Part shown: positions 6,141-63,935 of the stretch, in pieces
Numbering within the stretch: position 1 is the first letter of the stretch
How the letters are laid out: each line of letters starts with the position of its first letter
NCBI GenBank assembly: GCA_020051175.1
Contig: JAGVJJ010000011.1
Span: 80,257-144,256, forward strand
Direction of reading: 5' to 3'
From: Bacteroidia bacterium
GTDB lineage: Bacteria > Bacteroidota > Bacteroidia > 2-12-FULL-35-15
Length of the DNA stretch: 64,000 nt
Notes under the pieces: model-generated
Seen by the model: the letters and a program-made list of their open reading frames with translations, nothing else
Told to the model about the DNA's origin: nothing
Database searches by the model: none
Position numbers and translations under genes: made by a program

Positions 6141-6890
6141 TTAGTCAGGTACAACAAAAATTTTATAACAAGTATCATATTTCCCCTTGTTCAGGCAGAA
6201 TTTTCCTACCAAAAGCCTTCTTGCCCCTAACTGGCCTTTAAATCCCCTTTTCGTTAGTTCTCCGGGCAGGATCGTGTCCTTTTTATCTGCCAGCAGCGCT
6301 TCCAGTATTTCTTCGTCTGAAGGCTCTATTTGAGGTTCCAGTTCTTGTACCGGCTCCGGTTCGGGGTCAGTTTGTTCTTCTGTTACCGGTTCTTCCGGCT
6401 GGTCCATATCGGCTATGGGCTGTTCTTCTGCTTTTTCCTCAGAAACCGGCTGCTCAGAAACAGGTTCTTCAATTGGTTTTTCTTTCTCTGCAACAGGCTG
6501 TTCTTCTACCTTTTCTTCAGTAACCGGTTGCTCAGATGCAGGCTCCTCAATGGGTTCTTCTACAACAAGTTCTTCGATCACCGGTTCCTCTTTTACTTCT
6601 TCGGGAGCGGGATCTGTAACCTGTTCCTGTACTTCAGGCTCCGGTTCTTCTTCCTCGTCATTGTTTTCCAGTTGCCCCTCGAAAAATTCTTCAAGATCTT
6701 CATCCAACTCATCCGACAGCGTTTCGAGTTTATTTAGCAGCTTTTCCCGGTCTTCATCAGTGGTATGTTCAAGATCTTCTTTAAGTTCTTCAAAACCTTT
6801 AATGCGTTTGTAAAGCATTTTCGGGAGGGTCTTATAATCAATGTTATTGTTCTCCAGGAATTTTTCGTGTGTGAATTGTTCTGTCTTCAT
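6141..6890 (-). CDS. Hyper-acidic P/E/Q-rich protein (249 aa) with an in-frame 26-aa tandem repeat
   Basis: A 78-bp direct duplication at 6418-6573 encodes PIEEP[AV]SEQPV[TS]EEK[VA]EEQP... twice. Confidence 0.55.
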   Translation of the reverse strand: MKTEQFTHEKFLENNNIDYKTLPKMLYKRIKGFEELKEDLEHTTDEDREKLLNKLETLSDELDEDLEEFFEGQLENNDEEEEPEPEVQEQVTDPAPEEVKEEPVIEELVVEEPIEEPASEQPVTEEKVEEQPVAEKEKPIEEPVSEQPVSEEKAEEQPIADMDQPEEPVTEEQTDPEPEPVQELEPQIEPSDEEILEALLADKKDTILPGELTKRGFKGQLGARRLLVGKFCLNKGKYDTCYKIFVVPD

Positions 6891-18192: not shown

Positions 18193-18204
18193 CGGAAACG
18201 AATG

Positions 18205-18509
18205 TTCTTATAGGGCATTTAAAAAAATGCTTCTATAAGGGCTTTTGTTTTTAGCTCTTAATAAATGTTTGTTTTCACCGGCTCTTAAGGACTTGAAAAA
18301 AAATTCCTCTTTAAAGGCTTTTAAATTCCGCTCTTATAGGGCTTCATTTTTACCGGCTCTTAAGGCACGAAAAAAAAATCTCTTTAAAGACTTTTTATTT
18401 GCGGCTTTTATAGGGCTTTATTTTTTGCTCTTATAGGAGCTTTAAAACTTTTCTTGTATAGGACATTCAAAACTTTTGTCCTAAAGGATTTTAAAACTTT
18501 TATAAGAAC
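18205..18509. repeat. Iteron-like array: 13 degenerate units of a CTCTTAWAGGRC-type core spaced 23-27 bp, with A-tracts between units
   Basis: Cores start at 18205, 18230, 18254, 18281, 18307, 18331, 18356, 18380, 18404, 18427, 18451, 18478 and 18497. Units 4-6 and 7-9 form a 75-bp higher-order duplication. Confidence 0.7.
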
Positions 18510-39966: not shown

Positions 39967-41433
39967 ATGAACTCAGTAGCTCAGTTTCCGGAAGTTAAAA
40001 ATTACATCAATGGCTCATTCGAAAAAAATGGCAATAGCCATATAGATGTATTGTCTCCTTTGGATGGTAAATCTATTTCCAAAGTTCCTATGTCGACATA
40101 CAGTGATTTGGATAAAGCTGTTGCTGCAGCAAAAAAAGCATTTCCTGCATGGTCTGCATTGACACTGAAAGAACGTGTTCAAATATTTTTCAGATACCGT
40201 CAGCTGTTAGAAAAAAACAGGCAGGAATTGGCTGAACTGGTACACATTGAAAATGGAAAAACAATTGAGGAAGCATATGCTGAAGTAGATAAGAGTATTG
40301 AACTGTGTGAGTTTGCAGTTTCCTTGCCTCAGATTGTAAGCAATGAAGTACAGGAAGTAAGCCGTGGAGTTGAATGCAGGATAGAGAAAAAGCCTTTGGG
40401 AGTGGTTGCATCCATCGCACCTTTCAATTTCCCGAACATGGTGCCGCACTGGACCATGCCTAATGCCATCGCTTTAGGAAACACCATGATTTTAAAACCA
40501 TCTGAAATAGTGCCATTAAGTGCAGTACGTATGGCTGAGCTGCTAAAAGAAGCCGGTTTGCCGGATGGCGTGTTTAACGTTGTGAATGGCGGAAAAGAAA
40601 TTGTAGAAGCTATTTGCGATCATCCGGGCATAGAAGCTGTATCGTTTGTAGGTTCTACCAAAGTAGCTAAACTGGTTTATCAGCGTGCTACTCATAACTT
40701 AAAACGATGCGTTGCCCTGGGTGGCGCCAAAAATCACCTGATTGTATTACCGGATGCTCATCTGGAAATGACTGCCTCTAACGTGGTTGCATCCATGAGC
40801 GGTTGTGCCGGACAACGTTGCATGGCCGCAGCAGTAATGGTTGGCGTTGACAAGGTTCAGCACATCATTGATAAAATGTGTGAAGAAGCACGTAAAATTG
40901 TTCCGGGGAAAAACCTCGGTTCCGTCATCAGCAAAGAAGCTAAAGAACGTATTGAACGCTACATCACCGAAGCGGAACAAGCTGGTGCTAAAGTCCTTGT
41001 AGACGGACGAGGAGCTGTTGTTCCTGGCCATGAAAATGGTTTTTACGTTGGGCCTACAGTAATTGACTTTGTAACACCAGATATGAAAATCGCTAAGGAA
41101 GAAGTATTCGGACCGGTTATATCCATTGTAAGGGCCAAAGACCTCAACGAAGCTATTGAAATCGAAAACAGCTCAGCGTATGGCAATGCTGCTGCGGTAT
41201 TTACCCAAAGCGGTGGTTTGGCAAAACAAGTGATAGAGCGCGCAAGTGCTGGAATGATTGGTGTTAATGTTGGCGTACCTGTTCCTCGTGAGCCATTCTC
41301 TTTCGGTGGCTGGAACGAGTCTAAATTTGGCACTTGTGATATTACAGGAAAAAGCTCTATCGAATTTTTTACACAGAATAAAAAAACAACTGTGAAGTGG
41401 AATGCGGAGGCGAAAACGAATTGGATGAGTTAA
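39967..41433 (+). CDS. mmsA: CoA-acylating methylmalonate/malonate-semialdehyde dehydrogenase
   Basis: A 488-aa ALDH with the catalytic-Cys context GCAGQRCMAA. Confidence 0.85.
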   Translation: MNSVAQFPEVKNYINGSFEKNGNSHIDVLSPLDGKSISKVPMSTYSDLDKAVAAAKKAFPAWSALTLKERVQIFFRYRQLLEKNRQELAELVHIENGKTIEEAYAEVDKSIELCEFAVSLPQIVSNEVQEVSRGVECRIEKKPLGVVASIAPFNFPNMVPHWTMPNAIALGNTMILKPSEIVPLSAVRMAELLKEAGLPDGVFNVVNGGKEIVEAICDHPGIEAVSFVGSTKVAKLVYQRATHNLKRCVALGGAKNHLIVLPDAHLEMTASNVVASMSGCAGQRCMAAAVMVGVDKVQHIIDKMCEEARKIVPGKNLGSVISKEAKERIERYITEAEQAGAKVLVDGRGAVVPGHENGFYVGPTVIDFVTPDMKIAKEEVFGPVISIVRAKDLNEAIEIENSSAYGNAAAVFTQSGGLAKQVIERASAGMIGVNVGVPVPREPFSFGGWNESKFGTCDITGKSSIEFFTQNKKTTVKWNAEAKTNWMS

Positions 41434-41474
41434 TTAGTTATTGGTTATCTGTTATTAGTTATCTGTTATTAGTT
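41434..41474. repeat. GTTAT-type heptad array (left arm of a hairpin enclosing the four-helix-bundle gene)
   Basis: Sequence ttagttattggttatctgttattagttatctgttattagtt starts directly after the mmsA stop. Confidence 0.8.
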
Positions 41475-41480
41475 TTATGA

Positions 41481-41918
41481 ATGAGCAGTATAAAATCCTT
41501 TGAAGATTTGGAGTGTTGGAAGGCAGCAAGAGATGTCCGAATTTTTATTTCGAAAATTATAGCAAAACTTCCTCTTCAGGAAAAATACGATTTGATTGAT
41601 AATATGCGAAGAGCATCCCGCTCCTGCACTAGAAATATTGCCGAAGGATTCGGAAGATTCCATTATCAGGAAAACATTCAATTTTGCCGTATTTCAAGGG
41701 GTTCGATGACAGAACTGATTGATGATTTGATAACTTGCACCGATGAAAAATACATTTCCACAGAACAACTTTTAACTGGCAGACAGACGATTCAGAAGGC
41801 GATGGCACTATTAAATGGTTATATTACATATTTAGATAAGGCTAAATCAAGTTATCCTAAAAGTGTTTCAGAACCTGAAACGGACTATAATAGTTCTACT
41901 GACCAAAATAACAGATAA
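41481..41918 (+). CDS. Four-helix-bundle protein (23S rRNA intervening-sequence protein / Avd family)
   Basis: Family hallmarks FEDLECWKAARDV...RSCTRNIAEGFGR...SRGSMTEL are present; 145 aa. Confidence 0.85.
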   Translation: MSSIKSFEDLECWKAARDVRIFISKIIAKLPLQEKYDLIDNMRRASRSCTRNIAEGFGRFHYQENIQFCRISRGSMTELIDDLITCTDEKYISTEQLLTGRQTIQKAMALLNGYITYLDKAKSSYPKSVSEPETDYNSSTDQNNR

Positions 41919-41978
41919 CGGATAACAGATAACAGATAACGGATAACAGATAACGGATAACAGATAACAAATAACGGA
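41907..41978. repeat. ATAAC-type heptad array (right arm), ~10 units of RGATAAC
   Basis: Sequence aaataacagataacggataacagataacagataacggataac... contains the 4HB stop codon and ends 5 nt before the transaminase ATG. Confidence 0.8.
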
Positions 41979-41983
41979 TATAC

Positions 41984-43336
41984 ATGGAAACCAAAATATC
42001 AACTGCAGAACGCGAAGAAATAATTAAAAACAATTTAGAATACACATTGTTCTCCTGGAGCAAACAGGCAGGTTTAAGCCCAATAGCGGTAGAGCGTGCG
42101 GAAGGTGTATATGTTTATGACTATGATGGAAAGCGTTATATTGATTTTTCTTCCCAGTTAATGAATGTAAACATCGGCCATGGTGATAAACGTGTGCGCG
42201 ATGCGGTTGCAAAACAAATGGATGAAGTGAGTTATGTGTATCCGGGTATGGTTACAAAAGCACGTGGGGAGCTCGGAAAAAAATTAGCAGAAATAACACC
42301 GGGCATGAAAAAGGCATTCTTTACGCTTGGTGGTGCTGAAGCTATTGAAAATGCCATTAAAGCTGCCAGAGTTTTTACGGGGCGACACAAAATCATTACG
42401 CAATACCAATCATTTCACGGTGCTTCATATGGGGCATTCTCTGCCGGTGGTGACCCGCGCAGGCATTTGGTAGACGGACAAGCTGCACCGAATTTCATTC
42501 ATGTTGAAAATCCTTATTTCTACCGCTGCCCTTGGAATTCAAAAACATGGGAAGAATGCGCAGACAATTGTGCTGCACACGTAGAACGCGTTATAAAATA
42601 TGAAAACCCGGAAAGCATTGCCGCTATTATATTTGAAGGTGAGTCAGGTTCTTCAGGATGTATAAAATATCCTCCTACTTACTGGAAAAAAATACGCGCC
42701 ATCTGCGATAAGTATGGTATCCTGCTTGTTGCAGATGAAGTAATGAGCGGCTTTGGACGCACCGGAAAAATGTTTGCTTATGAGCATCACGGTGTTCAGG
42801 TGGATATGGTGACTATGGCAAAAGGTTTAACTGCCGGATACCTGCCTTTGGGCGCACTGATGGTATCCGAAAAAATTGCAAAATTCTTTGATGAAAAGCC
42901 ATTACCACTGGGCCTCACCTACTCTGCACATGCAGTAGCCTGTGCTTCCGCACTGGCTGTACTTGACATTTACAAAACTGACAAGTTGGTTGAAAACGCA
43001 GCGGCAATGGGTAAATACATTGACGCACGTGTGGAAGAACTGAAGAAGAAACATCCGTCTATTGGTGATTTCCGAAATACCGGGTTATTAGGCTGTATTG
43101 AGCTTGTAAAAAACCGAGCTACTAAAGAGCCTATGGCACCATGGAACGCAAAACCAGCCGAAATGGAGATAATGAACAAGGTTGCTGCCAAAGTAAAAGA
43201 GCTTGGTATGTTCACTTTCATCCGCTGGAACTGGATCTTCATCGCTCCACCTCTAAACATTACAAAAGCGCAGGTAGATGAGGGCTTGGAAATTATTTCA
43301 AAAGCAATCACCATTGCGGATGAGTATGTTAGTTAG
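41984..43336 (+). CDS. Class-III (omega) aminotransferase, probable beta-alanine/beta-aminoisobutyrate:pyruvate transaminase
   Basis: Motifs VADEVMSGFGRTG and MAKGLTAGYLPLG (PLP-binding Lys). Substrate assignment is from operon context. Confidence 0.8.
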   Translation: METKISTAEREEIIKNNLEYTLFSWSKQAGLSPIAVERAEGVYVYDYDGKRYIDFSSQLMNVNIGHGDKRVRDAVAKQMDEVSYVYPGMVTKARGELGKKLAEITPGMKKAFFTLGGAEAIENAIKAARVFTGRHKIITQYQSFHGASYGAFSAGGDPRRHLVDGQAAPNFIHVENPYFYRCPWNSKTWEECADNCAAHVERVIKYENPESIAAIIFEGESGSSGCIKYPPTYWKKIRAICDKYGILLVADEVMSGFGRTGKMFAYEHHGVQVDMVTMAKGLTAGYLPLGALMVSEKIAKFFDEKPLPLGLTYSAHAVACASALAVLDIYKTDKLVENAAAMGKYIDARVEELKKKHPSIGDFRNTGLLGCIELVKNRATKEPMAPWNAKPAEMEIMNKVAAKVKELGMFTFIRWNWIFIAPPLNITKAQVDEGLEIISKAITIADEYVS

Positions 43337-43484
43337 TTATTAAATTATTCGTTATCTGCTATTTGTTACCAATTAATATCGAATAAATCCAATAGGTAAT
43401 AGACAACAAATAGCTGACAGCGAATAACATTTAACCTGCAATTCAACAATTGAAACAGATAACCGATAACAGATAACGAATAAC
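43328..43484. repeat. Spacer hairpin: GTTAT arm (43328-43370) plus ATAAC arm (43421-43484)
   Basis: A perfect 14-nt complement pairs ttattcgttatctg (43345-43358) with cagataacgaataa (43470-43483). Confidence 0.75.
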
Positions 43485-44942
43485 TTGTCAATAGATAACA
43501 ACATAAAATCCTCCTCCCTTTACAGCGAAGACCTTGCCCCAATTGAGCAATCCAAGCGCAGCTGGAACACGTGGAATTATGCTGCTTTGTGGATAAGCAT
43601 GAGCTTGTGCATTCCAACCTACATGCTTGCCAGCTCATTAATTGATGGCGGTATGAACTGGTGGCAGGCGATACTTACCATATTCCTCGGAAATACTGTT
43701 GTGCTTGTACCCATGATTTTGAACGGACATGCTGGAGCGAAATATGGTATTCCATTTCCGGTATTTGCAAGAGCAAGCTTTGGGGTGAAAGGCGCCAACT
43801 TACCTGCAGTGCTTAGGGCCATTGTTGCTTGTGGTTGGTTTGGTATTCAAACCTGGATAGGAGGTTATGCATTATATCAGCTTTTCAAAGTATGGTATCC
43901 CGCGATAGAAAGTATCCCGGATATATTTCCTGCTTCGTGGGAACTAAAAACCGGGCCGGCAATCACCTTTATTTTGTTCTGGTTGCTCAATATGTACATT
44001 GTTTATCTGGGAGTCGACAGCATAAAAAAATTATTGGTCTTCAAAGCGTTTTTTCTTCCTTTAGCAGCTTTGGCTTTGTTGTTTTGGGCTATCTCAGCTA
44101 GCGATGGCGGTTTGGGCACTATTCTGGCTCAACCCTCAAAATTTGCTACCAACGCAGATTTCTGGGCCTACTTCTTTCCCGGGCTCACAGGTATGGTTGG
44201 CTTTTGGGCAACACTCTCCCTTAATATTCCAGACTTTACACGATATGCCGTAAGCCAGCGCGCACAGGTACTTGGGCAAACCATTGCATTGCCTCCTTCC
44301 ATGACTTTATTCGCATTTATAGGTGTGGTTGTAACTTCAGCTACCACCATAATCTTTGGAACCACTATTTGGGATCCTTTGGTACTGGCCGGAAAGTTCG
44401 ATAGCAAAGTATTGGTTTCCATTGCTATGATTGCTGTTGCAATCTCAACCCTGGCAACCAATATTGCCGCTAATATCGTAAGTCCCGCCAACGACTTTGC
44501 AAATCTCGCTCCTTCAAAAATAAGCTTTAAAACAGGAGGCTATATAACAGGAATAATCGGTGTTCTTATTTTTCCATGGAAGCTGATTGCTGATCCAACA
44601 GGTTATATTTTCACGTGGCTGATAGCCTATTCGGGCCTTCTGGGCCCAGTAGGAGGAATCATGATTGCCGACTACTTCTTTATACGCTCCAAAGAGCTTA
44701 AGCTTGAACATCTCTATAAAGAAAAAGGAGAATATACTTATACCAATGGATTCAATTCCGCTGCAATCATTGCGTTGGTACTTGGTATTTTACCCAATAT
44801 CCCTGGCTTCCTGACAACTACAAACGTCATTGATAAAACAACTGTGTGGTCGTGGTTATCTCATTTATATAACTATGCCTGGTTCGTTGGGTTTATTGTT
44901 TCCGGGTTGGTTTATTGGTTCTTAATGAAAACTAAAAAATAA
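43485..44942 (+). CDS. NCS1-family nucleobase:cation symporter
   Basis: A 12-TM pattern with the N-terminal RSWNTWNYAALWISM. The TTG start is taken from the ORF track. Confidence 0.8.
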   Translation: MSIDNNIKSSSLYSEDLAPIEQSKRSWNTWNYAALWISMSLCIPTYMLASSLIDGGMNWWQAILTIFLGNTVVLVPMILNGHAGAKYGIPFPVFARASFGVKGANLPAVLRAIVACGWFGIQTWIGGYALYQLFKVWYPAIESIPDIFPASWELKTGPAITFILFWLLNMYIVYLGVDSIKKLLVFKAFFLPLAALALLFWAISASDGGLGTILAQPSKFATNADFWAYFFPGLTGMVGFWATLSLNIPDFTRYAVSQRAQVLGQTIALPPSMTLFAFIGVVVTSATTIIFGTTIWDPLVLAGKFDSKVLVSIAMIAVAISTLATNIAANIVSPANDFANLAPSKISFKTGGYITGIIGVLIFPWKLIADPTGYIFTWLIAYSGLLGPVGGIMIADYFFIRSKELKLEHLYKEKGEYTYTNGFNSAAIIALVLGILPNIPGFLTTTNVIDKTTVWSWLSHLYNYAWFVGFIVSGLVYWFLMKTKK

Positions 44943-44951
44943 AAATCAATT

Positions 44952-46331
44952 ATGTCGATACTTATTAAAAACGGACACATTGTTACTGCTTCCGAAGATT
45001 TCAAGGCAGATATTTATGTAGAAGGTGAAAAAATTGTTGCCATAGGTAAGGACCTGAAATACGATGCACAAAAAGTGATTGATGCATCCGGAAAGCTTGT
45101 TTTTCCCGGAGGTATTGACCCTCATGTTCACCTGGATATGCCATTCATGGGAACATCCTCCAGCGATGATTATGAAACGGGAACACGCGCGGCTTTACAC
45201 GGTGGCACCACAATGGTAATTGACTTTATTCTACAAACACAAGGTGATACTTTATACAACGCGTTGCGTGCCTGGCAAAAACGCTCGGAGAAAGCAATTG
45301 GTGACTATTCCTACCACATGGCTGTTACTGACTTTAATGACAACACTGCCAAAGAAGTAGTTGAACTGATAGAAAAAGAAGGCATCACGTCCTTTAAAAC
45401 ATTTATGGCGTACAAAGGTGCATTGATGATTGACGATGGACAAATGGTCCAGTTGATGCGTACTCTGAAGAAGCATGGTGGACTTATCACTGTTCACGCT
45501 ACCAATGGTGATATGATCGACTCACTTATTTCAATGCACAGGAAAGAAGGAAAATTATCACCATTATACCACTATTTGTCACAACCCGAAATAACGGAAG
45601 CTGAAGCATCTGAACGCTTTTCAGATATGCTGTATTACACAGGCTGTCCCGGCTACATTGTACACATGACCTGTGAAGGTGCGCTAAATGCGGTTCGCAG
45701 GGCATCTACCCGCAATCAGAAAGTGTTTGTTGAAACCTGTTCGCAATACTTAATGCTGGATGCATCTTTATATGAAAAAGGATTCGAGGGTGCAAAATGG
45801 GTAATGAGCCCTCCCTTACGCGAAAAGAAAGACCAAACGGCCTTGTGGAGTGGTATCAACCAGGGATTGGTTCAGGTGGTTGGAACCGACCATTGTCCGT
45901 TTATGTGGGAGCAAAAGAAAATGGGTGAAAACGATTTTTCAAAAATTCCTAACGGACACCCAGCCATCGAACACCGCATGGAATTTGTGTTTTCAGAAGG
46001 TGTTGCAAAAGGAAAAATTTCACTTTCAAAATTTGTTGAGGTTACATCCACCAACGCTGCAAAAATATTCGGTATGTATCCGCGTAAAGGTACTTTGTCT
46101 ATTGGAGCTGATGCCGACATTGTAGTATTTGACCCAAATAAAAAACATATTATATCCGTTAAAACACACCACATGAATGTGGACTACTCGGCCTACGAAG
46201 GTTGGGAAGTAACAGGTAAATGTGAAACCGTACTGCTACGCGGACAAGTTGCAATTGAAAATGAAAAATGCCTGCTCACAAAGGGCAACGGAAAATTCAT
46301 TCCAAGAAATAAAATATCTGGCATTATTTGA
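44952..46331 (+). CDS. Dihydropyrimidinase (D-hydantoinase)
   Basis: Metal-binding motif GGIDPHVHLDMPF; 459 aa. Confidence 0.9.
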   Translation: MSILIKNGHIVTASEDFKADIYVEGEKIVAIGKDLKYDAQKVIDASGKLVFPGGIDPHVHLDMPFMGTSSSDDYETGTRAALHGGTTMVIDFILQTQGDTLYNALRAWQKRSEKAIGDYSYHMAVTDFNDNTAKEVVELIEKEGITSFKTFMAYKGALMIDDGQMVQLMRTLKKHGGLITVHATNGDMIDSLISMHRKEGKLSPLYHYLSQPEITEAEASERFSDMLYYTGCPGYIVHMTCEGALNAVRRASTRNQKVFVETCSQYLMLDASLYEKGFEGAKWVMSPPLREKKDQTALWSGINQGLVQVVGTDHCPFMWEQKKMGENDFSKIPNGHPAIEHRMEFVFSEGVAKGKISLSKFVEVTSTNAAKIFGMYPRKGTLSIGADADIVVFDPNKKHIISVKTHHMNVDYSAYEGWEVTGKCETVLLRGQVAIENEKCLLTKGNGKFIPRNKISGII

Positions 46332-46426
46332 AATAACCTGGAGCATACACAGCACGAATAACAGATAAACAATAACCTAATAACCAATAACTGTTAACTA
46401 TTAACTATTAACTAATAACTATTAAA
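46332..46426. repeat. ATAAC/TTAAC heptad array, single orientation
   Basis: Sequence aaataacc...cgaataacagataaacaataacctaataaccaataactgttaactattaactattaactaataactatt fills the whole spacer. Confidence 0.7.
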
Positions 46427-46428
46427 CC

Positions 46429-47295
46429 ATGCCAAGAATCATTAAATCAGGACTAATCCAAATGAGCCTTCCGAAAACAGAAGGAGAAGGAACTATACAG
46501 GAAATATGCGATGCAATGGTGCAAAAGCACATTCCATTCATTGAAGAAGCAGGAAAAAAAGGCGTTCAGATACTTTGTTTACAGGAAATTTTCAATACCC
46601 CATATTTCTGCCCGGGACAGGACAAAAAATGGTACGCCTCCGCAGAATCAGTTCCAGGGCCTACTACAGACCTGATGGCTACTTATGCAAAAAAATACAA
46701 TATGGTAATTATTGTTCCTATTTATGAAAAAGAACAATCAGGTGTTTTATACAATACAGCTGCAGTAATTGATGCAGACGGGACCTACCTTGGAAAATAC
46801 CGCAAAAATCACATCCCTCACACTTCAGGTTTCTGGGAAAAATTCTTTTTCAAACCAGGCAATTTAGGTTACCCGGTTTTCCAGACAAAATACGCAAAAG
46901 TAGGAGTTTACATTTGTTATGATCGCCACTTCCCCGATGGAGCGAGAGCTTTAGGACTTAATGGTGCAGAGATTGTTTACAACCCATCGGCAACCGTTGC
47001 TGGCTTATCGCAATATTTATGGAAGCTGGAACAACCTGCACACGCTGCAGCTAACGGAAATTTCTGGGGATGCATCAACCGTGTAGGTGAAGAAAAACCG
47101 TGGAACTTAGGTAAGTTTTATGGTAACTCCTATTTTGTTGATCCTCGCGGACAAATTTTTGCATGTGCATCCGAAGATAAAGATGAGTTGTTAATTGCTG
47201 AATTCGATCTGGACATGATCGATGAAGTAAGAAGCACCTGGCAGTTTTTCCGCGACCGCAGACCGGAAACGTATGGTGTGCTTACGGAGTTGTAG
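46429..47295 (+). CDS. Carbon-nitrogen hydrolase (nitrilase superfamily), probable beta-ureidopropionase
   Basis: Catalytic-Cys context is VYICYDRHFPDGAR. Function is assigned from operon context. Confidence 0.75.
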   Translation: MPRIIKSGLIQMSLPKTEGEGTIQEICDAMVQKHIPFIEEAGKKGVQILCLQEIFNTPYFCPGQDKKWYASAESVPGPTTDLMATYAKKYNMVIIVPIYEKEQSGVLYNTAAVIDADGTYLGKYRKNHIPHTSGFWEKFFFKPGNLGYPVFQTKYAKVGVYICYDRHFPDGARALGLNGAEIVYNPSATVAGLSQYLWKLEQPAHAAANGNFWGCINRVGEEKPWNLGKFYGNSYFVDPRGQIFACASEDKDELLIAEFDLDMIDEVRSTWQFFRDRRPETYGVLTEL

Positions 47296-47301
47296 AGATG
47301 T

Positions 47302-47448
47302 TGGTAGTTATCGGTTATTTGTTATAGGTTATTTGTTATTTCTGTAATTCATTGTCAATTAACCCATAACTGATAACAATAACTGATAACTGTTAACCAA
47401 TAACTGATAACCATTAATAAATAACCCAATAACAGATAACTAAATAAA
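47302..47448. repeat. Spacer hairpin: GTTAT arm (47302-47343) plus ATAAC arm (47363-47448)
   Basis: tagttatcggttatt (47305-47319) pairs with aataacagataacta (47428-47442) at 14 of 15 positions. Confidence 0.75.
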
Positions 47449-47450
47449 CA

Positions 47451-48770
47451 ATGGCCGAATACAAAAGACCCTCTTCCGAACTGGAATTTGAAGCAAATTT
47501 CGCTCAGAAGAAACCCTTGATGAACAGCACTGAAGCGTATTACGAAAGCTCACGCTGTTTATTTTGCTACGATGCGCCCTGCATGAATGCTTGTCCTACA
47601 CATATTGATATTCCGTTATTTATCAAACAAATTCATACAGGAAATGTGGAAGGCGCTGCAAAAACCATTTACGATTCCAACTGGATGGGAAATGCATGTG
47701 CAAAGGTTTGCCCTACGGGAGTTTTATGTGAAGGAGCCTGCGTGTATAACAACCAGCATGTGAAACCGATTGAAATTGGGCGTTTGCAGAACTACGCTAC
47801 ATTGGCAGCCATCAAACAAAATAAAAAAATTGCGGAACCAGGTGTTCCCAATGGTAAAAAAGTAGCTATTATCGGTGCCGGACCAGCGGGCTTATCTGCG
47901 GCCTGTGAACTGCGAACATTGGGATATATGGTAGATGTTTTTGAAGCAAAAGCCAAACCAACCGGACTTACGGTATACGGTGTAGCGCCTTACAAAATCA
48001 ATAATGAAGAGGCATTGCAGGAAGAAGAATATTTACAAAAACAATTGGGTTATAATGTATTTTATAACAAGCCAATTAATACATCTGAGCAGCTAAAAGA
48101 AATAGAATCGTCATACGATGCTGTATTCTTAGGCGTTGGTCTTGGAACTACCGCTTCGCTTGGGATTCCGGGCGAAGATGGAAGCAATGTTATCGGGGCA
48201 GTGGAGTTCATTGAGGATTTGCGTATGAAACATCATACGATAAAAATTCCTTCAAGAGTTGTAGTTATCGGAGGTGGAAATACCGCCATGGATGCAGCTT
48301 CTGAAAGTGCAAGAATGGGTGCAGAAAAAGTAACTCTTGCATACAGACGTGATAAAGCAGGAATGGGTGCCTACAAATTTGAATACGACCTTGCCCTGAG
48401 TGCAGGAGTTACAAGCCTTTTCAACGCCTCACCAGTTGAAATAACTGCGCAGGGAGTAAAATTTATCAGAACACAGGAAGTGAACGGCAAGCTTGAAAAC
48501 ATTGCAGGCAGTGAGTTTACACTTGAATGCGACCTTGTTATAAAAGCAACCGGACAAGCTAAAATGGGTTCACTGTTAAAACAAATTAGTGGAGTACAGT
48601 TGGACAAAAGCAACCGCATTGTTGTAAATATGGAAACCTATCAGACCGGCAATCCAAAATATTTTGCAGGAGGCGATGCCGTAAATGGCGGAGCTGAAGT
48701 GGTAAACGGAGCCTATGAAGGAAAAATGGCTGCGAAAGGAATAGATAAATGGCTGAAGACTGGTAAATAG
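47451..48770 (+). CDS. preT: NAD-dependent dihydropyrimidine dehydrogenase, PreT-like subunit
   Basis: Fe-S motif CLFCYDAPCMNACP and dinucleotide fold VAIIGAGPAGLSAA. Confidence 0.85.
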   Translation: MAEYKRPSSELEFEANFAQKKPLMNSTEAYYESSRCLFCYDAPCMNACPTHIDIPLFIKQIHTGNVEGAAKTIYDSNWMGNACAKVCPTGVLCEGACVYNNQHVKPIEIGRLQNYATLAAIKQNKKIAEPGVPNGKKVAIIGAGPAGLSAACELRTLGYMVDVFEAKAKPTGLTVYGVAPYKINNEEALQEEEYLQKQLGYNVFYNKPINTSEQLKEIESSYDAVFLGVGLGTTASLGIPGEDGSNVIGAVEFIEDLRMKHHTIKIPSRVVVIGGGNTAMDAASESARMGAEKVTLAYRRDKAGMGAYKFEYDLALSAGVTSLFNASPVEITAQGVKFIRTQEVNGKLENIAGSEFTLECDLVIKATGQAKMGSLLKQISGVQLDKSNRIVVNMETYQTGNPKYFAGGDAVNGGAEVVNGAYEGKMAAKGIDKWLKTGK

Positions 48771-48960
48771 TTATTGAGTTATCAGTTATCAGTTATTCGT
48801 TATTGAGGGATAGCTAAAGAATAAATAAATTCAATAACCCACCAAATAACTAATAACCCAATAACAGATAACCAATAACCAATAACAGATAACCATTAAC
48901 CCATTAACCCATTAACCCAATAACCAATAACCGATAACCTAATAACTCAATAACGAATAA
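48768..48960. repeat. Spacer hairpin: GTTAT arm (48768-48814) plus long ATAAC/TTAAC arm (48831-48960)
   Basis: A perfect 15-nt complement pairs ttattcgttattgag (48793-48807) with ctcaataacgaataa (48946-48960). Confidence 0.75.
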
Positions 48961-48964
48961 GAAA

Positions 48965-50305
48965 ATGGACTTATCAATAAATTTCGCAGGAATAAAATCT
49001 CCAAACCCTTTCTGGCTGGCTTCCGCACCTCCAACCAATTCAGGCTACCAGATCATGAAAGCCTTTGATGCTGGCTGGGGCGGTGCTGTATGGAAAACAT
49101 TGGGTGTTCCTGTAGTGAATGTTTCCAGCCGTTACGGTTCTGTTAATTACCGGAACACACGTATGGCAGGCTTTAATAACATTGAGCTGATCACCGATCG
49201 TCCTTTAGCCGATAACCTAAGGGAAATAGAAGAAGTAAAAAAATATTTTCCCAATCATGCCGTAATCGCCTCACTCATGGTGGAAACCAAAGAGCAGTGG
49301 CATGCAATTATAAAAGATGTGCAAAATGCAGGAGCCGATGGTATTGAATTAAATTTCGGCTGTCCGCACGGAATGTGCGAAAGAGGCATGGGTTCAGCCG
49401 TAGGCCAGGAGCCGGAAGTATTGCAAACCATTGTAGGCTGGGTAATGGAAGCAGCTAAAATACCTGTAATTACAAAGCTCTCACCTAACATTTCACACAT
49501 TACCGACCCTGGGCTGGCTGCGGTTAAAGGTGGTACAGATGCAATCTCCTTGATCAATACGATTAAAAGTATTGTTGGAATCGACTTGGATACCTATGCT
49601 CCCTATCCTGTAGTAGACGGCAAAGGTAGCAATGGCGGGTATTGCGGACCAGCAGTAAAACCAATTGCGCTGCAAATGCTGCGCGAACTGGCATGCGATA
49701 AAGAAATTAACAAAGTGCCTATCAGCGGTATAGGTGGAATTGAAACATGGAGAGATGTAGTGGAGTTCATTTTGCTTGGCGCAACATCCGTGCAGGTATG
49801 TACAGCTGCCATGCACTATGGCTTTGGAATTGTAAGGGAAATGGAAGCTGGACTTATTCAGTTTATGAAGGATAAAGGCTATACTACTATCTATGATTTT
49901 GCTGGTAAGGCATTGCCAAATGTAACTGAATGGAAACATCTGAACCTGAAGCATAAAGTAGTTGCAAATATAAACCCCGACAAATGTGTTGGTTGTGAGC
50001 TATGTTACATAGCCTGCGATGATGGCGCTCACCAGGCAATCGGCCTCACAGAGGGTAGCAGAGTACCGCATATAATAGAAGAGAATTGTGTGGGCTGTAA
50101 CCTCTGCTCGCTGGTTTGTCCGGTAGAAGGTTGTATTACCATGCAAAAGCGCGATGATGGCACACAACATTTAACCTGGGATGAAAGAACAAAAGCCAAC
50201 AATATTCCTGTAACCTTTAACGATGAACTTGCCGGTGGCCGCCATCACTGGGTTCCGGCACCTGTCGATGCGCTTAAGAACAAGAGGAAGGATATGAGAA
50301 GGTAA
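48965..50305 (+). CDS. preA: NAD-dependent dihydropyrimidine dehydrogenase, PreA-like subunit
   Basis: DHOD-like core ELNFGCPHGM plus two C-terminal 4Fe-4S motifs, CVGCELCYIACDD and CVGCNLCSLVCP. Confidence 0.9.
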   Translation: MDLSINFAGIKSPNPFWLASAPPTNSGYQIMKAFDAGWGGAVWKTLGVPVVNVSSRYGSVNYRNTRMAGFNNIELITDRPLADNLREIEEVKKYFPNHAVIASLMVETKEQWHAIIKDVQNAGADGIELNFGCPHGMCERGMGSAVGQEPEVLQTIVGWVMEAAKIPVITKLSPNISHITDPGLAAVKGGTDAISLINTIKSIVGIDLDTYAPYPVVDGKGSNGGYCGPAVKPIALQMLRELACDKEINKVPISGIGGIETWRDVVEFILLGATSVQVCTAAMHYGFGIVREMEAGLIQFMKDKGYTTIYDFAGKALPNVTEWKHLNLKHKVVANINPDKCVGCELCYIACDDGAHQAIGLTEGSRVPHIIEENCVGCNLCSLVCPVEGCITMQKRDDGTQHLTWDERTKANNIPVTFNDELAGGRHHWVPAPVDALKNKRKDMRR

Positions 50306-50312
50306 TTGCTTA

Positions 50313-50345
50313 AGTTATTGAGTTATCAGTTATTAGTTATTAGAT
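50313..50345. repeat. Terminal GTTAT-type heptad array (no partner arm downstream)
   Basis: Sequence agttattgagttatcagttattagttattagat lies directly after the preA stop. Confidence 0.65.
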
Positions 50346-50393
50346 AATAGGTAAAGAAAATTTATTCATAATTTTTGTAATCTTTTACACCCA

Positions 50394-50446
50394 TTCTCGA
50401 CAAGCCCGAAATACACCGCGCGCTGTCATTTCGAGCTTGTCGAGAA
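50394..50446. repeat. Small palindromic element (12-bp perfect inverted repeat ttctcgacaagc / gcttgtcgagaa) containing 'TCATTTCGAGC'
   Basis: The inverted repeat was read directly. A partial second copy, ttatcatttcgagcctgccgggaaac, lies at 37087-37113. Confidence 0.45.
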
Positions 50447-50682: not shown

Positions 50683-50688
50683 CAACAA

Positions 50689-50721
50689 AAACACCATTGA
50701 CAATTCAGTGGTGTTTTTTAT
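50689..50721 (+). terminator. Rho-independent terminator after tRNA-Leu
   Basis: Stem aacaccattga / tcagtggtgtt (10/11) followed by tttttta. Confidence 0.6.
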
Positions 50722-57998: not shown

Positions 57999-58060
57999 GA
58001 AGAGTCAAAGAGTCAAAAGTCAAAAGAATACAATAAGCACCTTTTGACTTTTGACTTTAT
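57999..58060. repeat. Heptad hairpin (AGTCAAA)n / (TTTGACT)n
   Basis: A perfect 16-bp stem pairs agtcaaaagtcaaaag (58011-58026) with cttttgacttttgact (58041-58056), with a 14-nt loop. Confidence 0.8.
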
Positions 58061-58075
58061 ACCCTTAAGCACTTC

Positions 58076-58393
58076 CTAAAGTAATGCTTTCAATTTAGCA
58101 TCCAATACCGATTTAGGTACTGCGCCTACTTGTTTATCCACTACTTCTCCGCCTTTGAAGAAAAGGATTGTAGGGATATTACGGATTCCGAACATTGCAG
58201 AAACGTTTGCGTTGTTGTCAACATTTACTTTGCCCACAACAGCTTTGCCATCATAATCTTTTGACAATTCTTCTACAACTGGTCCAACCATGCGACAAGG
58301 TCCACACCACTCTGCCCAAAAGTCAAGTAATACGGGTTTGTCTGAATTTTTTACTAACTCATCAAAGTTAGCGTCTGTGATTTCTAGTGCCAT
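58076..58393 (-). CDS. trxA: Thioredoxin
   Basis: Active site is WAEWCGPCR; 105 aa. Confidence 0.95.
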   Translation of the reverse strand: MALEITDANFDELVKNSDKPVLLDFWAEWCGPCRMVGPVVEELSKDYDGKAVVGKVNVDNNANVSAMFGIRNIPTILFFKGGEVVDKQVGAVPKSVLDAKLKALL

Positions 58394-61500: not shown

Positions 61501-62131
61501 AAGCAATGATTTTCACATTGTATTTTTTTGCAAATTTCAGTAACACTTCATTCACCTTATTCTGGTCAGGAATATCGTGTCTTTGCAGCTCTACGTAATA
61601 GTCCTCTCCAAAAATGTCCAGCCACCATTTGAATTCCTTTTCTCCTTCTTCTTCACCTTTTTTTAAGATAGTTCTGGGCACAGATGCGCCCAGACAGCAG
61701 GTTGTAGCAATCAGGCCTTTGTGATATTTCAAAACCAGTTCCTTATCAATACGGGGATATTTACCATACAAACCTTCTGTATAGCCTAAAGAGCAAAGCT
61801 TTAAAAGATTTTTATATCCTTCCGCATCTTTAGCAAGGAACAACTGGTGATAACGTATATCTTTATCTTCCTTTGTAAACTGAAGCTTATTGCGGTTTTC
61901 CACCAGATAAAATTCACAACCAACAATCGGCTTGATTTTATTCGGATTATCAGGCGTATTGTGCTTTGCAGCTTCAGCCACAAATTTAAATACTCCAAAC
62001 ATATTACCATGGTCGGTAATGGCAAGCGCACGCATATTGTCATTCACAGCCTTTTTATATAGTGCCGAAATATCTGCAGCGCCATCCAACAGGGAAAACT
62101 GGGTATGAACGTGTAAGTGGGAAAAATTCAT
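58535..62131 (-). CDS. dnaE: DNA polymerase III alpha subunit
   Basis: PHP N-terminus is FSHLHVHTQFSLLDGA. The 1198-aa protein shows the full family pattern. Confidence 0.95.
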   Translation of the reverse strand: MNFSHLHVHTQFSLLDGAADISALYKKAVNDNMRALAITDHGNMFGVFKFVAEAAKHNTPDNPNKIKPIVGCEFYLVENRNKLQFTKEDKDIRYHQLFLAKDAEGYKNLLKLCSLGYTEGLYGKYPRIDKELVLKYHKGLIATTCCLGASVPRTILKKGEEEGEKEFKWWLDIFGEDYYVELQRHDIPDQNKVNEVLLKFAKKYNVKIIASNDSHYVDQADSNAHDILLCINTGEKQSTPIMKDFGDDDSASTKGKRFAFYNDQFYFKTTAEMSQLFSDLPEAIDNTNDIVDKITPLKLKQDIMLPNFQMPVGFATQDDYLNHLTYTGAKDRYKELTPEIEERLNFELNTIKIMGFAGYFLIVSDFIKAGRDIGVFVGPGRGSAAGSVVAYCIGITNIDPIKYNLLFERFLNPDRKSMPDIDTDFDDEGRQKVIDYVVDKYGKNQVAQIVTYGTMAAKMSIKDVARVMDLPLQESNMLAKMVPEKPGIVLKRVLTAPMTGAGSLEEKEGLTKEDLEEVKKLRAVLAGDDLQAKVLKEALVLEGSVRGTGIHAAGIIIAPKDITDIVPVSTSKETNLLITQYDGKVIEDAGVIKMDFLGLKTLSIIRDALKLIKQNHGIDIVIDDVPLDDLKTFELYQRGDTNGTFQFESAGMQKHLINLKPDKFADLIAMNALYRPGPIEYIPNFIARKHGRETIEYDLPEMEEYLSDTYGITVYQEQVMLLSQKLAGFSKGDADVLRKAMGKKDKATLDKMKSKFMDGATAKGLKADKLEKVWTDWEKFAQYAFNKSHSTCYAFVAYQTAYLKAHYPAEYMASVLTHNLSNIEKITFFMDECKRIGVPVLGPDVNESEYQFAVNKAGQIRFGMGAVKGVGENAVHSIVEERTANGPYKSIFDLVRRINLRAANKKTFESLAYAGGFDSLNIHRATYFFTEGNDSGNFLEKTIRYGNSHQEGASSAQVSLFGESSEVEMPEPKIPVCEPWSNLEQLKYEKDVVGFFISGHPLDTYKLEIDNFCIHSVSDTKKIEENKNKDLVFGGIVTGVHHGVTKTGNPWGKIVIEDYRESVDLAFFGEDYVKFKPYMVQGLFLYVRGKISERFRNSGNFEFKVTTIQLLSELRDKLARSITVSLPLKDLSDDFINKFNEILTTNDKAQPRNCTLKFKVVDSEENIAVLLPSKKIKVNPNNELLELLDLNRLEYKLN

Positions 62132-62132
62132 G

Positions 62133-62268
62133 GGTTACGGATAACGAATGGTTACGAATTTACGAATCTGTGTATCTACTAATTACTAATCTTTACTAAT
62201 CTACCAATTTTGCAAATTACCTACTGTTAAATTGTTTTGCCAACTGCTAACTGCCAATTGCCAACTGA
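62133..62268. repeat. Three consecutive tandem heptad tracts upstream of dnaE: TTACGAA-like, TACTAAT and CTGCCAA-like
   Basis: Tract 1 (62133-62168) is gttacggataacgaatggttacgaatttacgaatc. Tract 2 (62176-62205) is ctactaattactaatctttactaatctacc. Tract 3 (62237-62268) is ttgccaactgctaactgccaattgccaactg. Confidence 0.7.
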
Positions 62269-62423
62269 TTACATTACGTAAATTTACCGAATAAATACGT
62301 TTGTTTTAGGGCTGTTGAAAAGATGTGAAAAAAGAAAATTAAGCATCACTGGGCATCTCTTTGTTTATACAATTCAAAATATTGTTAATTTGGCAAAAGT
62401 AAATTTTGTGAAATTATCTGAGT

Positions 62424-63935
62424 GTGAGTTTTTTAAATATTGATACTGACAAATTAGTTCAGCAGCTTACTTATAATCCAAAAGACCCATTATTGTTTAA
62501 CAGCGGGTTCTTCCTCTTTTTTTTCTGTATATTCTTATTGGGTTACCAGTTTTTATACAAAAAAAAGCTTGGCAGGGTTATCTACTTCACCATTTTTTCA
62601 CTTTATTTCTTCTATAAAGCCTGTGGTTTCTATTTCCTGTTTATACTGCTATCAGCCGTTATTGACTTTAATCTTGCCAACTGGATATATGCCGCTAAAA
62701 CAAAGCGATTGAAGAACGGAATGCTTATTTTTAGTATTGCTATCAATTTAGGATTGCTCTTTTACTTCAAATACACAAACTTTTTTATTGAAATCATCAA
62801 TGACTTCAAACTTGGGAATATTCAGCCTTTGAACCTCATCTTACCTATAGGAATTTCCTTCTATACCTTTGAGAACCTGAGTTATACAATAGATGTATAC
62901 CGTAACAAATTTAAGCCGGTACAGAGCTTTTTGGACTATTGTTTTTTCCTTTCCTTCTTTCCAAAACTGGTGATGGGTCCCATTGTAAGAGCTTCCGACT
63001 TTATTCCCCAAATCCGCAAGGACATTTTTGTTACAAGCGAAGATATATCAAAAGGCTTGTACCTGATAGTGGGCGGACTTTTCAAGAAAGTGGTTATATC
63101 TGACTTTATTTATGTCAATTATGTACAATATATTTTCGATGATCCCTCACGCCATTCCGGAATTGAGTGTTTATTAGGCGTTTACGGATACGCCATGGTG
63201 ATTTACTGCGATTTTTCAGGTTATTCCGACATGGCAATCGGGATGGCACGCTGGATGGGCTTTACGCTAAATGAAAATTTTGATTCCCCTTACCAATCCA
63301 GCAGCATTACCGAATTTTGGCGCAGGTGGCACATTTCATTGTCGTCCTGGCTGAAGGACTACCTGTACATTTCATTGGGTGGCAACAGGGCTGGCAAATT
63401 TCGCCAATACATTAACTTAATGATTACTATGCTTTTAGGAGGCTTGTGGCATGGTGCTTCGTTCAACTTTATTGTATGGGGTGGTATGCACGGGCTTGCA
63501 CTGGCCTTTGACAAGCTGCGTATGTCAGTAGTTGCGCGCTACAACTCCTTTCATGAAGAAACTTTTGGCAGAGCTATTAGTTCCAAAATTGTACAATCCT
63601 TAGGAGTCCTGATTACCTTCCACTTCGTTTGTTTCTGCTGGATTTTCTTCAAAGCATCTACCTTTGAAGATGCAGGGATCATTATCAGCCAGATATTTAC
63701 CAATTTTAATATAGAAGCCTTAGGCGCTCTTATTTCAGCTTACGGAACTGTATTCGCTGTGATGTCATTGGGGTATGCACTGCATTTTATGCCTAAATCC
63801 TATGAGCTTTTCTCTGAGAAAATACTTTCCAAAGCAACCCTTATTGGCAGGGTTGCCATTCTTTTGGTCTTTATCTGGCTGGTAATACAGGTAAAACAGG
63901 CCGATCAGGTGATGCCTATTTATTTGCAGTTTTAG
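62424..63935 (+). CDS. MBOAT-family membrane O-acyltransferase (AlgI/DltB-like)
   Basis: Conserved His region is WRRWHISLSSWLKDYLYI. The protein is multi-TM with a GTG start. Confidence 0.85.
   Translation: MSFLNIDTDKLVQQLTYNPKDPLLFNSGFFLFFFCIFLLGYQFLYKKKLGRVIYFTIFSLYFFYKACGFYFLFILLSAVIDFNLANWIYAAKTKRLKNGMLIFSIAINLGLLFYFKYTNFFIEIINDFKLGNIQPLNLILPIGISFYTFENLSYTIDVYRNKFKPVQSFLDYCFFLSFFPKLVMGPIVRASDFIPQIRKDIFVTSEDISKGLYLIVGGLFKKVVISDFIYVNYVQYIFDDPSRHSGIECLLGVYGYAMVIYCDFSGYSDMAIGMARWMGFTLNENFDSPYQSSSITEFWRRWHISLSSWLKDYLYISLGGNRAGKFRQYINLMITMLLGGLWHGASFNFIVWGGMHGLALAFDKLRMSVVARYNSFHEETFGRAISSKIVQSLGVLITFHFVCFCWIFFKASTFEDAGIIISQIFTNFNIEALGALISAYGTVFAVMSLGYALHFMPKSYELFSEKILSKATLIGRVAILLVFIWLVIQVKQADQVMPIYLQF

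Follow-up and report, generated by a model that had tools for sequence, protein, structure and literature searches.

Heptad-armed hairpins in the spacers of a Bacteroidota pyrimidine-catabolism operon and their likeness to 23S rRNA intervening sequences

The reductive pyrimidine-catabolism operon described here lies in a window of 64,000 nucleotides (nt) from a Bacteroidia bacterium (assembly GCA_020051175.1, contig JAGVJJ010000011.1, positions 80,257 to 144,256 of the forward strand), to which all coordinates without a locus name refer. Three of its intercistronic spacers hold no open reading frame (ORF) and fold into hairpins that reach from the stop codon of one gene to the start codon of the next, with arms of tandem GTTAT and ATAAC heptads. 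A fourth array pair, absent from the first-pass annotation of this DNA, brackets a small gene for a PF05635/TIGR02436 protein (IVP), a member of the family of proteins encoded by the intervening sequences (IVSs) of 23S rRNA. The ORF-less hairpins belong to one family with the IVP cassettes and reside in co-transcribed spacers; they turn over between strains, and their two arms co-evolve. By analogy with the rRNA elements, we give a probability of about 0.5 to the reading that the three hairpins represent the ORF-less form of a family of IVS-like cassettes found in transcribed spacers, with stems that are probably substrates of RNase III.

The operon encodes, in this order, an aldehyde dehydrogenase (ALDH), the IVP, a class-III aminotransferase (AT), an NCS1 permease, a dihydropyrimidinase (DHP), a CN-hydrolase (CNH), PreT and PreA, as assigned with Pfam (Table 1). 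We compared the RNA folds of the three hairpin spacers with 200 dinucleotide shuffles each, and every spacer folded below all of its shuffles. The minimum free energy (MFE) was −27.7 kcal/mol for the AT-NCS1 spacer (z-score −4.01), −36.3 kcal/mol for the CNH-PreT spacer (z −4.35) and −34.2 kcal/mol for the PreT-PreA spacer (z −7.73). The outer stems listed in the first-pass annotation pair as it described, at 14 of 14 positions (43345-43358 with 43470-43483), 14 of 15 (47305-47319 with 47428-47442) and 15 of 15 (48793-48807 with 48946-48960), and the core TTATTCGTTAT is indeed common to two left arms. The folds also bear out its suggestion that folding brings each stop codon near the next start: both lie at the base of one helix, which starts inside the stop codon or 4 nt past it and ends 0-10 nt ahead of the start codon. 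The total stem reaches ~35-37 bp in hairpins 2 and 3. For hairpin 1, the 14-bp stem is one of several alternative registers; the MFE fold pairs the left arm with the nearer GCGAATAAC copy, which is of the ATAAC type, and closes stop to start with an outer 7-bp helix. The loops of the three hairpins are 25-110 nt long and contain no PF05635 ORF.

In the fourth array pair, the IVP gene has GTTAT units on its 5' side (41437-41474) and ATAAC units on its 3' side (41908-41980). Tandem Repeats Finder (TRF) described the 3' arm as 10.4 copies of a period-7 unit. A 32-bp closing stem around the ORF (41437-41470 with 41925-41961) was present in both the MFE and the centroid fold, and the whole 556-nt cassette folded with a z-score of −4.27. 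The encoded protein matched PF05635 (4e-26) and TIGR02436 (8.5e-23), the 23S-rRNA-intervening-sequence-protein or four-helix-bundle family, and its relatives in the Protein Data Bank, 2GSC and 2RLD, have five chains each. Its sequence is identical across three assemblies. The operon thus contains one ORF-bearing and three ORF-less hairpins of the same heptad together with two half elements, and the presence of an IVP gene inside the fourth hairpin changes the likeliest identity of all of them. The block 40542-42706, which includes the IVP cassette, is identical between the window and the related locus L001 in the midst of coding DNA that differs by 1-5%, suggesting recent recombination or transfer of the segment.

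Table 1. Coordinates of the host operon and its repeat elements in the 64-kb window.
Feature	Coordinates	Strand	Description
Reductive pyrimidine-catabolism operon	39967..50305	+	ORFs and Pfam; host of the repeat elements
5' arm of IVP cassette	41431..41476	+	5-6 GTTAT heptads from 3 nt past the ALDH stop
IVP ORF, 145 aa	41481..41918	+	In hairpin loop; stop codon inside the ATAAC array
3' arm of IVP cassette	41900..41983	+	10 (G/A)ATAAC(A/G) heptads, ending 8 nt before the AT ATG
ORF-less hairpin 1	43334..43487	+	AT stop TAG to NCS1 start TTG; GTTAT-type arm opposite ATAAC arm
Unpaired ATAAC/TTAAC array	46332..46428	+	Directly 5' of the CNH ATG; 3'-arm type, no local partner
ORF-less hairpin 2	47293..47453	+	CNH stop TAG to PreT ATG; ~37 bp paired
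ORF-less hairpin 3	48768..48967	+	PreT stop TAG to PreA ATG; 5 GTTAT versus ~16 ATAAC heptads
Terminal GTTAT array	50303..50348	+	4 heptads, from 8 nt past the PreA stop; 5'-arm type, no downstream partner

The GTTAT/ATAAC arrays are a real and non-random feature of this DNA. All arrays of at least three copies in the 64-kb window fall within 41437-50340, and TAACTGATAACTGA with at most one mismatch has five hits against 0.02 expected. This dimer of the heptamer TAACTGA occurs exactly at 48782-48795 on the minus strand. TRF reported the consensus units ATAACTG, ATAACAG, AATAACC and AGTTATC, and the last WTAAC unit stops 0-10 nt short of five start codons. The arrays are carried by three independent assemblies (GCA_049276555.1, Logan SRR27012973 and Logan ERR12944142) and thus are no assembly artefact. 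The first-pass annotation had assigned the stop-to-start design to every long spacer of the operon, which holds with the exception of the DHP-CNH spacer, where one arm alone is present. (The NCS1-DHP spacer measures just 9 nt.) The one-armed spacers that it reported are real, with ATAAC/TTAAC units alone at 46332-46428 and GTTAT units alone at 50314-50340. The former comprises nine WTAAC units and is nearly unstructured (local fold −3.5 kcal/mol), and by computation it could pair with 47293-47345 at −41 kcal/mol; for the terminal array, the surplus ATAAC heptads of 48830-48964 are a possible partner (−26 kcal/mol). Pairing across whole cistrons, which the same annotation had considered, is therefore possible, as every GTTAT arm combined with every ATAAC arm gives −17 to −45 kcal/mol.

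Long hairpins between cistrons could also act as intrinsic terminators or attenuators. However, these stems are A/U-rich, extend over 30-40 bp, have no U tract and lead directly into the following start codon. A terminator scan gave counts not above those of shuffles and no site in the spacers on the plus strand; its sole convincing site (50687-50718) follows the tRNA-Leu gene. Termination is therefore a most improbable explanation. A promoter scan with a sigma-70 model, which is unsuited to Bacteroidota, gave counts not above shuffles and no site in the spacers. At the gathering score, Rfam 15 matched tRNA-Leu and nothing else in the whole 64-kb window, so that the operon spacers are without a family match and the window is without rRNA, and the Pfam search identified no transposase gene in the operon.

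The same layout recurs in orthologous operons. The best 80 relatives of the DHP among 185,579 species genomes share 76-86% identity with it and belong nearly all to the Bacteroidota (Saprospiraceae, Chitinophagales, Flavobacteriales and Balneolales), and the order of the operon genes is conserved in ~70 Bacteroidota loci. Judged from these relatives, the lineage of the window is Bacteroidota and not cyanobacterial. We pooled the orthologous loci of the 80 relatives with the window (1.53 Mb) and examined the co-directional spacers of 60-1000 nt between genes of at least 200 amino acids (n = 327) for duplexes between the 43 nt past the stop and the 43 nt before the start, using cross-pairings of different spacers as the expectation. 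Duplexes of −18 kcal/mol or stronger were present in 37 of the 327 spacers (5.2 expected), and those of −25 kcal/mol or stronger in 16 (0.55 expected). The arm heptads of the relatives vary (for example, GGTATCN, AAAGTTT, AATTGAT, GAGTTAT, GATTACA and TGGTTAT), and some arms are period-8 arrays or unique palindromes like those of repetitive extragenic palindromic (REP) elements. The strongest stop-to-start closures, at −50.9 and −47.1 kcal/mol, have period-8 units (CATGTGCT in L049 13682-13951 and GAGTGATT in L066 6496-6948), so a period of 7 is preferred but not obligatory. The recurrent pattern is a stop codon, an array, an optional IVP gene, the reverse complement of the array and a start codon, with a locus-specific heptad and complementary arms.

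A local profile search identified 18 IVP genes in the pooled loci, all co-directional with the operon. Seventeen of them lie inside the operon, which makes up 48% of the sequence (binomial p 5e-5, a statistic that counts inherited insertions repeatedly). By junction, seven are in the ALDH-AT spacer, four each in DHP-CNH and CNH-PreT and one in PreT-PreA. Seven genes of the GxxExxY family (TIGR04256/PF13366) are also present, all inside the operon, and most of the small inserted genes are flanked by complementary arms; the heptad of the arrays around the IVP genes differs by locus. Furthermore, the same junction can be near-empty, hold a bare hairpin or hold a cassette in different genomes, and the orthologous spacers measure 1-1943 nt (medians 57-90 nt). 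For example, the DHP-CNH spacer, which has one arm in the window, contains in L068 a GTTAT-IVP-ATAAC cassette whose fold keeps ~50 bp. One orthologous operon (L025 4207-16308) carries five small inserted genes, two of the GxxExxY and three of the IVP type, and the three IVP genes have three heptads (AAAGTTT, AATTGAT and AAAATTG). In a Bacteroidetes metagenome-assembled genome (L032 9483-9557), ten perfect GGATAAC units start from the 3' end of PreT and apparently extend into its coding end.

Other palindromes occupy the same positions. Loci of the Flavobacteriia type have a conserved unique palindrome, GAACGCAGATGACGCTGAT...ATCAGCGTCATCTGCGTTC, in their spacers, often around a GxxExxY gene (TIGR04256, PD-(D/E)XK fold); its sites are L007 11381-12071, L015 6720-6900, L030 8067-8271, L029 11384-11535, L050 12309-12473 and L025 11498-11920. 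From its layout, which again runs from stop to start, it seems to represent a second type of cassette. Spacers in L024 (9406-9494 and 11799-11892), L020 (11375-11474) and L028 (2549-2644) are filled by yet another recurrent palindrome, the third (...CTCGACTGCGCTCGAGG...). This one is resembled by a 19-nt inverted repeat, TTCTCGACAAGCCCGAAAT / ATTTCGAGCTTGTCGAGAA, located right after the operon in the window (50394-50446).

The position of the helices brings translational coupling into consideration. By setting each stop codon beside the next start, the hairpin would allow a terminating ribosome to melt the base of the stem and expose or reach the next initiation site, and the downstream cistron would be translated only when the upstream one is. 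Bacteroidota initiate translation independently of Shine-Dalgarno sequences, and the A-rich, G-poor 3' arm fits this mode of initiation. The tight spacing of the stem ends to both codons and the enrichment of stop-to-start closures among co-directional spacers are in line with coupling as well, as is the occurrence of TAA in all three frames of the ATAAC arrays, which was also noted for TAACTGA repeats (PMC4679880). However, there are orthologous operons that manage without a hairpin, their spacers being 1-60 nt long, and the range and medians of the orthologous spacers show that coupling cannot be essential to the operon. The hairpins are also gained and lost between close relatives and strains. 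Furthermore, the same design encloses ORFs of 350-450 nt, so that a scanning subunit would not encounter stop and start as functional neighbors, and any insert in a short spacer lies near both codons by necessity. For these reasons we regard coupling as an unlikely explanation of the hairpins.

The association of IVP genes with inverted heptad arrays extends well beyond this operon. We seeded a metagenome scan with IVP peptide motifs only, taken from three close sequences (the alignment of all 18 was too diverse), and recovered 80 loci, 71 of them with full flanks and with a GC content of 28-66%. The 80-nt upstream and downstream flanks pair at −40 kcal/mol or stronger in 23 of these 71 IVP genes, versus 3.6% of cross-pairings. 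A strict period-7 array, defined as at least 80% lag-7 identity over 28 nt, was present in at least one flank of 37 of the 71 genes, versus 2 of 379 control windows, and lag 7 accounted for 43 of the 51 periodic calls. Co-directional neighbors on both sides were found for 56 of 89 IVP genes, at median gaps of 55 and 40 nt. The IVPs nearest to that of the window (55-63% identity) bear GTTAT/GTTAA and ATAAC/TTAAC arrays, even in a contig of 61% GC.

IVP relatives are also encoded by 36 plasmids of the PLSDB database, mostly from Nostoc (15), Calothrix, Trichormus and Riemerella. The flanks carry GGGTGTG (four copies) and CCCTACA (five copies) on a plasmid of N. punctiforme, heptads of the (A/T)TCAGA type and their complement on one of T. 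variabilis, and four copies of AGGGTGT on one of Calothrix; the heptads on the two sides of one IVP copy of strain PCC 7120 lack complementarity. A tyrosine recombinase/integrase gene lies directly 5' of the heptad-flanked IVP gene on N. punctiforme pNPUN01 (L163) and Calothrix brevissima plasmid1 (L165). The first-pass annotation had likened the heptads of the window to the short tandemly repeated repetitive (STRR) sequences of heterocystous cyanobacteria. The analogy gains from the inverted heptad arrays that flank IVP genes on Nostoc, Trichormus and Calothrix plasmids and fails with respect to the lineage, which is that of a Bacteroidota.

In another reading, an oligomeric nucleic-acid-binding protein would recognize the heptads as tandem sites, with the potential to form hairpins being secondary. 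The IVP of the same operon would be the obvious ligand, ribosomal protein S1 or a cold-shock protein being other candidates, and binding would tune the initiation or RNA stability of each cistron with a cognate heptad. Authors of two papers have postulated a "yet to be identified" binding partner for heptamer repeats (PMC4679880; bioRxiv 10.1101/2022.06.06.494920), and the 2022 preprint still called both the role and the partner of the Nostoc heptamers unidentified (bioRxiv 10.1101/2022.06.06.494920). Consistent with a bound protein, no array of this heptad in the 64-kb window is more than 9 kb from the single IVP gene there, the ORF-less arrays of L015 and L036 use the heptad of the local IVP cassette, and one-armed arrays exist. 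The five chains of 2GSC and 2RLD are also close to the four to six units of the GTTAT arrays. Related IVPs on different contigs keep related arms, with 57% sharing at least three arm 6-mers versus 22-27% of distant pairs, but common descent or joint mobility also predicts this. The purifying selection on IVP genes described below can be added in favor. Yet a protein site does not require strict complementarity of the arms within an element, and many hairpin spacers are in loci with no IVP gene within 20 kb. We think it quite unlikely that binding arrays explain the elements.

Comparisons between strains and between related cassettes revealed how the elements change. Two other strains (including SRR27012973) have one extra AGTTATC unit (+7 nt) in the 5' arm of the PreT-PreA spacer. 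Their AT-NCS1 spacer is wholly different and unalignable, and it again forms a GTTAT...ATAAC hairpin (z −3.06) between coding sequences that are 95-99% identical and with the TTG start retained. At the level of single bases, the near relatives have an identical CNH-PreT spacer and this unalignable AT-NCS1 spacer, and co-evolution was assessed at the level of arrays in place of base-by-base covariation. In a restricted duplex set of IVP cassettes with at least 45% protein identity and from different contigs, arms paired with their own partner at a mean of −32.2 kcal/mol and with the arms of related elements at −22.9 kcal/mol. Own-partner pairing was better in 504 of 583 comparisons, which are non-independent pairs. 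As judged from these comparisons, arrays grow and shrink by whole heptads and their two arms co-evolve. The ratio of nonsynonymous to synonymous substitution rates (dN/dS) of the IVP genes is 0.03-0.10 in six pairs, a mark in their codons of strong purifying selection. Arms persist in orthologous insertions with saturated synonymous sites. Furthermore, polarity is strict: the 5' arm has more G than C in 61 of 65 strong cassettes (p 4e-14).

This turnover would also be expected of repeats that act at the DNA level only, either as slippage-prone arrays kept inverted by hairpin-templated repair or gene conversion or as the ends of DNA-mobile elements, tolerated in spacers because they are harmless. 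The whole-heptad indels and the allele replacement between strains agree with such an origin, and so do the variable presence at orthologous junctions and the GxxExxY genes with PD-(D/E)XK fold in similar palindrome-flanked positions. Complementarity is symmetric and of the Watson-Crick type, with no wobble bias on the sense strand. A process confined to DNA does not, however, fit the strong preference for co-directional transcribed spacers (56 of 89), the polarity rule or the survival of arms beyond the saturation of synonymous sites, and the same design occurs within 23S rRNA, with the stem serving as an RNA substrate. Thus, we hold a purely DNA-level explanation to be improbable.

ORF-less intervening sequences exist in rRNA. 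The IVS of Coxiella 23S rRNA carries a PF05635 ORF within a 28-bp terminal inverted-repeat stem that is cut by RNase III in vitro (PMC4990558). It contains two to three tandem heptamers in a strain-variable number, the 5' cut falls at the first repeat, and the ORF is reported as decaying (PMC4990558). Compared with the 23S rRNA IVSs of Leptospira and Coxiella, the elements described here are alike in the long terminal inverted-repeat stem that encloses a PF05635 ORF (here 41481-41918), in the strain-variable tandem heptamers of the arm, in their location within a transcribed non-coding stretch and in the existence of ORF-less and ORF-bearing forms. They differ in their host, which is an intercistronic spacer of mRNA and not helix 9, 25 or 45, in having arms that are almost wholly heptads and in the strong purifying selection that acts on their IVP genes, unlike the decaying Coxiella ORF.

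The STRR heptamers of heterocystous cyanobacteria, which Mazel et al. are said to have defined in 1990 as dispersed direct arrays and not as paired arms, are also tandem heptanucleotide arrays in non-coding DNA; the elements of the window differ from them in lineage, in heptad sequence and in the pairing of their arms. REP palindromes, their composites (bacterial interspersed mosaic elements, BIMEs) and the intercistronic RNase III sites of phage T7 form hairpins in intercistronic or 3' regions of polycistronic RNAs, as the elements described here do, and affect the processing and stability of neighboring cistrons. They are, however, unique-sequence elements of 20-40 nt without an enclosed gene, and REPs are tied to REP-associated tyrosine transposases (RAYTs), whereas the arms here are tandem repeats and no RAYT was seen. 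Closest in sequence are the direct repeats of the heptamer TAACTGA found just 5' of start codons in Beggiatoaceae, Cyanobacteria and five Bacteroidetes (MacGregor 2015, PMC4679880). The first-pass annotation was unsure whether an equivalent had been described for this lineage, and these repeats supply it. In that study, a "reverse" array lies right after a stop codon in Flexibacter litoralis, "forward" arrays have stop codons in all frames, and indels between strains occur in 7-nt steps (PMC4679880). The arrays of the window are of the same heptad class (one-base variants plus an exact dimer) and share the Bacteroidota host, the position of the "forward" arrays a few nt before start codons and the 7-nt indels between strains. 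Unlike here, the arrays were treated as direct repeats without predicted structure, and no forward/reverse hairpin pairs that close a spacer were described (PMC4679880). The text of that paper does not mention helix bundles, S23 or 23S and so makes no link to four-helix-bundle proteins. Among open-access publications, we found none on the paired hairpin design or on PF05635 genes with flanking heptad arrays in operons. Heptamer repeats and IVSs were known already; the main contribution here is the link between them.

The comparison with Coxiella also provides a model for the favored reading, an IVS-like cassette in a transcribed spacer. Such a cassette would comprise the upstream stop, a G/T-rich tandem array, usually of period 7, a loop, the reverse-complement A/C-rich array and the next start, and its loop may or may not hold a small gene, usually for a PF05635 four-helix-bundle IVP. 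This operon contains one full cassette with the same GTTATC/GATAAC heptad (41431-41983). In the polycistronic RNA, the arms would form a duplex of ~30-40 bp that RNase III would probably cut, as it does the stem of the Coxiella element. Cleavage in every spacer would break up the operon transcript, set free or eliminate the IVP message and unmask the A-rich, G-poor leader of the following cistron, allowing Shine-Dalgarno-independent initiation there. The suggestion of RNase III-type sites in the first-pass annotation hence fits the closest homologous system.

Several observations weigh against this reading. Cleavage by RNase III is argued here solely from likeness of design. Neither stem stability nor G-U content differed between sense and antisense strands in the cassettes (41 vs 48, p 0.96), nor was there an asymmetry in the spacers (22 vs 15, p 0.10), and without a wobble signature on the sense strand, complementarity may be maintained by a process at the DNA level and not by selection on the sense RNA. 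No remnants of an IVP gene occur in the loops of the three bare hairpins, which are too short for any, so that the descent of these hairpins from full cassettes is conjectural. Arrays also persist without a local partner at both one-armed sites of the operon. Finally, the controls, E-values and pair counts are constructions of this analysis, and the repeated counting of inherited insertions and the non-independence of arm pairs, given above with the respective numbers, weigh the same way.

Repeats of other kinds were observed elsewhere in the window. A co-directional spacer between minus-strand genes (58076-58393 and 57034-~57985) holds a hairpin at 58000-58058 with arms of a different unit, AGTCAAA(G) in three copies opposite two to three copies of CTTTTGA, and a 15-nt loop. 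Thus, the design extends in this genome beyond the pyrimidine operon. The divergent intergenic region at 62131-62424 is dense in short arrays (GGTTACG/GATAACG, three copies of TACTAATC, and four copies of TGCCAAC with a period of 7). Tandem repeats of ~74-76 nt (18203-18509; three A/T-rich copies with internal palindromes) and of a 78-nt unit (6418-6561; 1.8 copies) appear unrelated to the heptads.

Reports of heptamer repeats close to start codons go back decades for cyanobacteria, with Beggiatoaceae and Bacteroidetes added more recently, and we know of no mechanism for these repeats. The PF05635 four-helix-bundle family is large and conserved and, to our knowledge, without known function outside diversity-generating retroelements. 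More tentatively, it is possible that the heptamer arrays of all these systems (STRR, TAACTGA, the Coxiella IVS heptamers and GTTAT/ATAAC) represent the paired arms of one phylum-spanning class of PF05635 cassettes that colonizes rRNA and mRNA spacers. ORF-less arrays would then be non-autonomous derivatives, and an oligomeric IVP, with each subunit bound to one repeat of its own heptad, might guide RNA processing or the spread of the arrays into neighboring spacers. The systematic co-occurrence of IVP genes and inverted heptad arrays in operons and rRNA, across GC contents of 28-66%, provides a concrete and testable hypothesis for both puzzles. As far as we know, the ribosomes of Bacteroidota initiate without Shine-Dalgarno pairing. 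Burial of every initiation region in a long duplex would amount, in this phylum, to a strong level of control over operon expression, or of RNA processing, that has not been studied so far.

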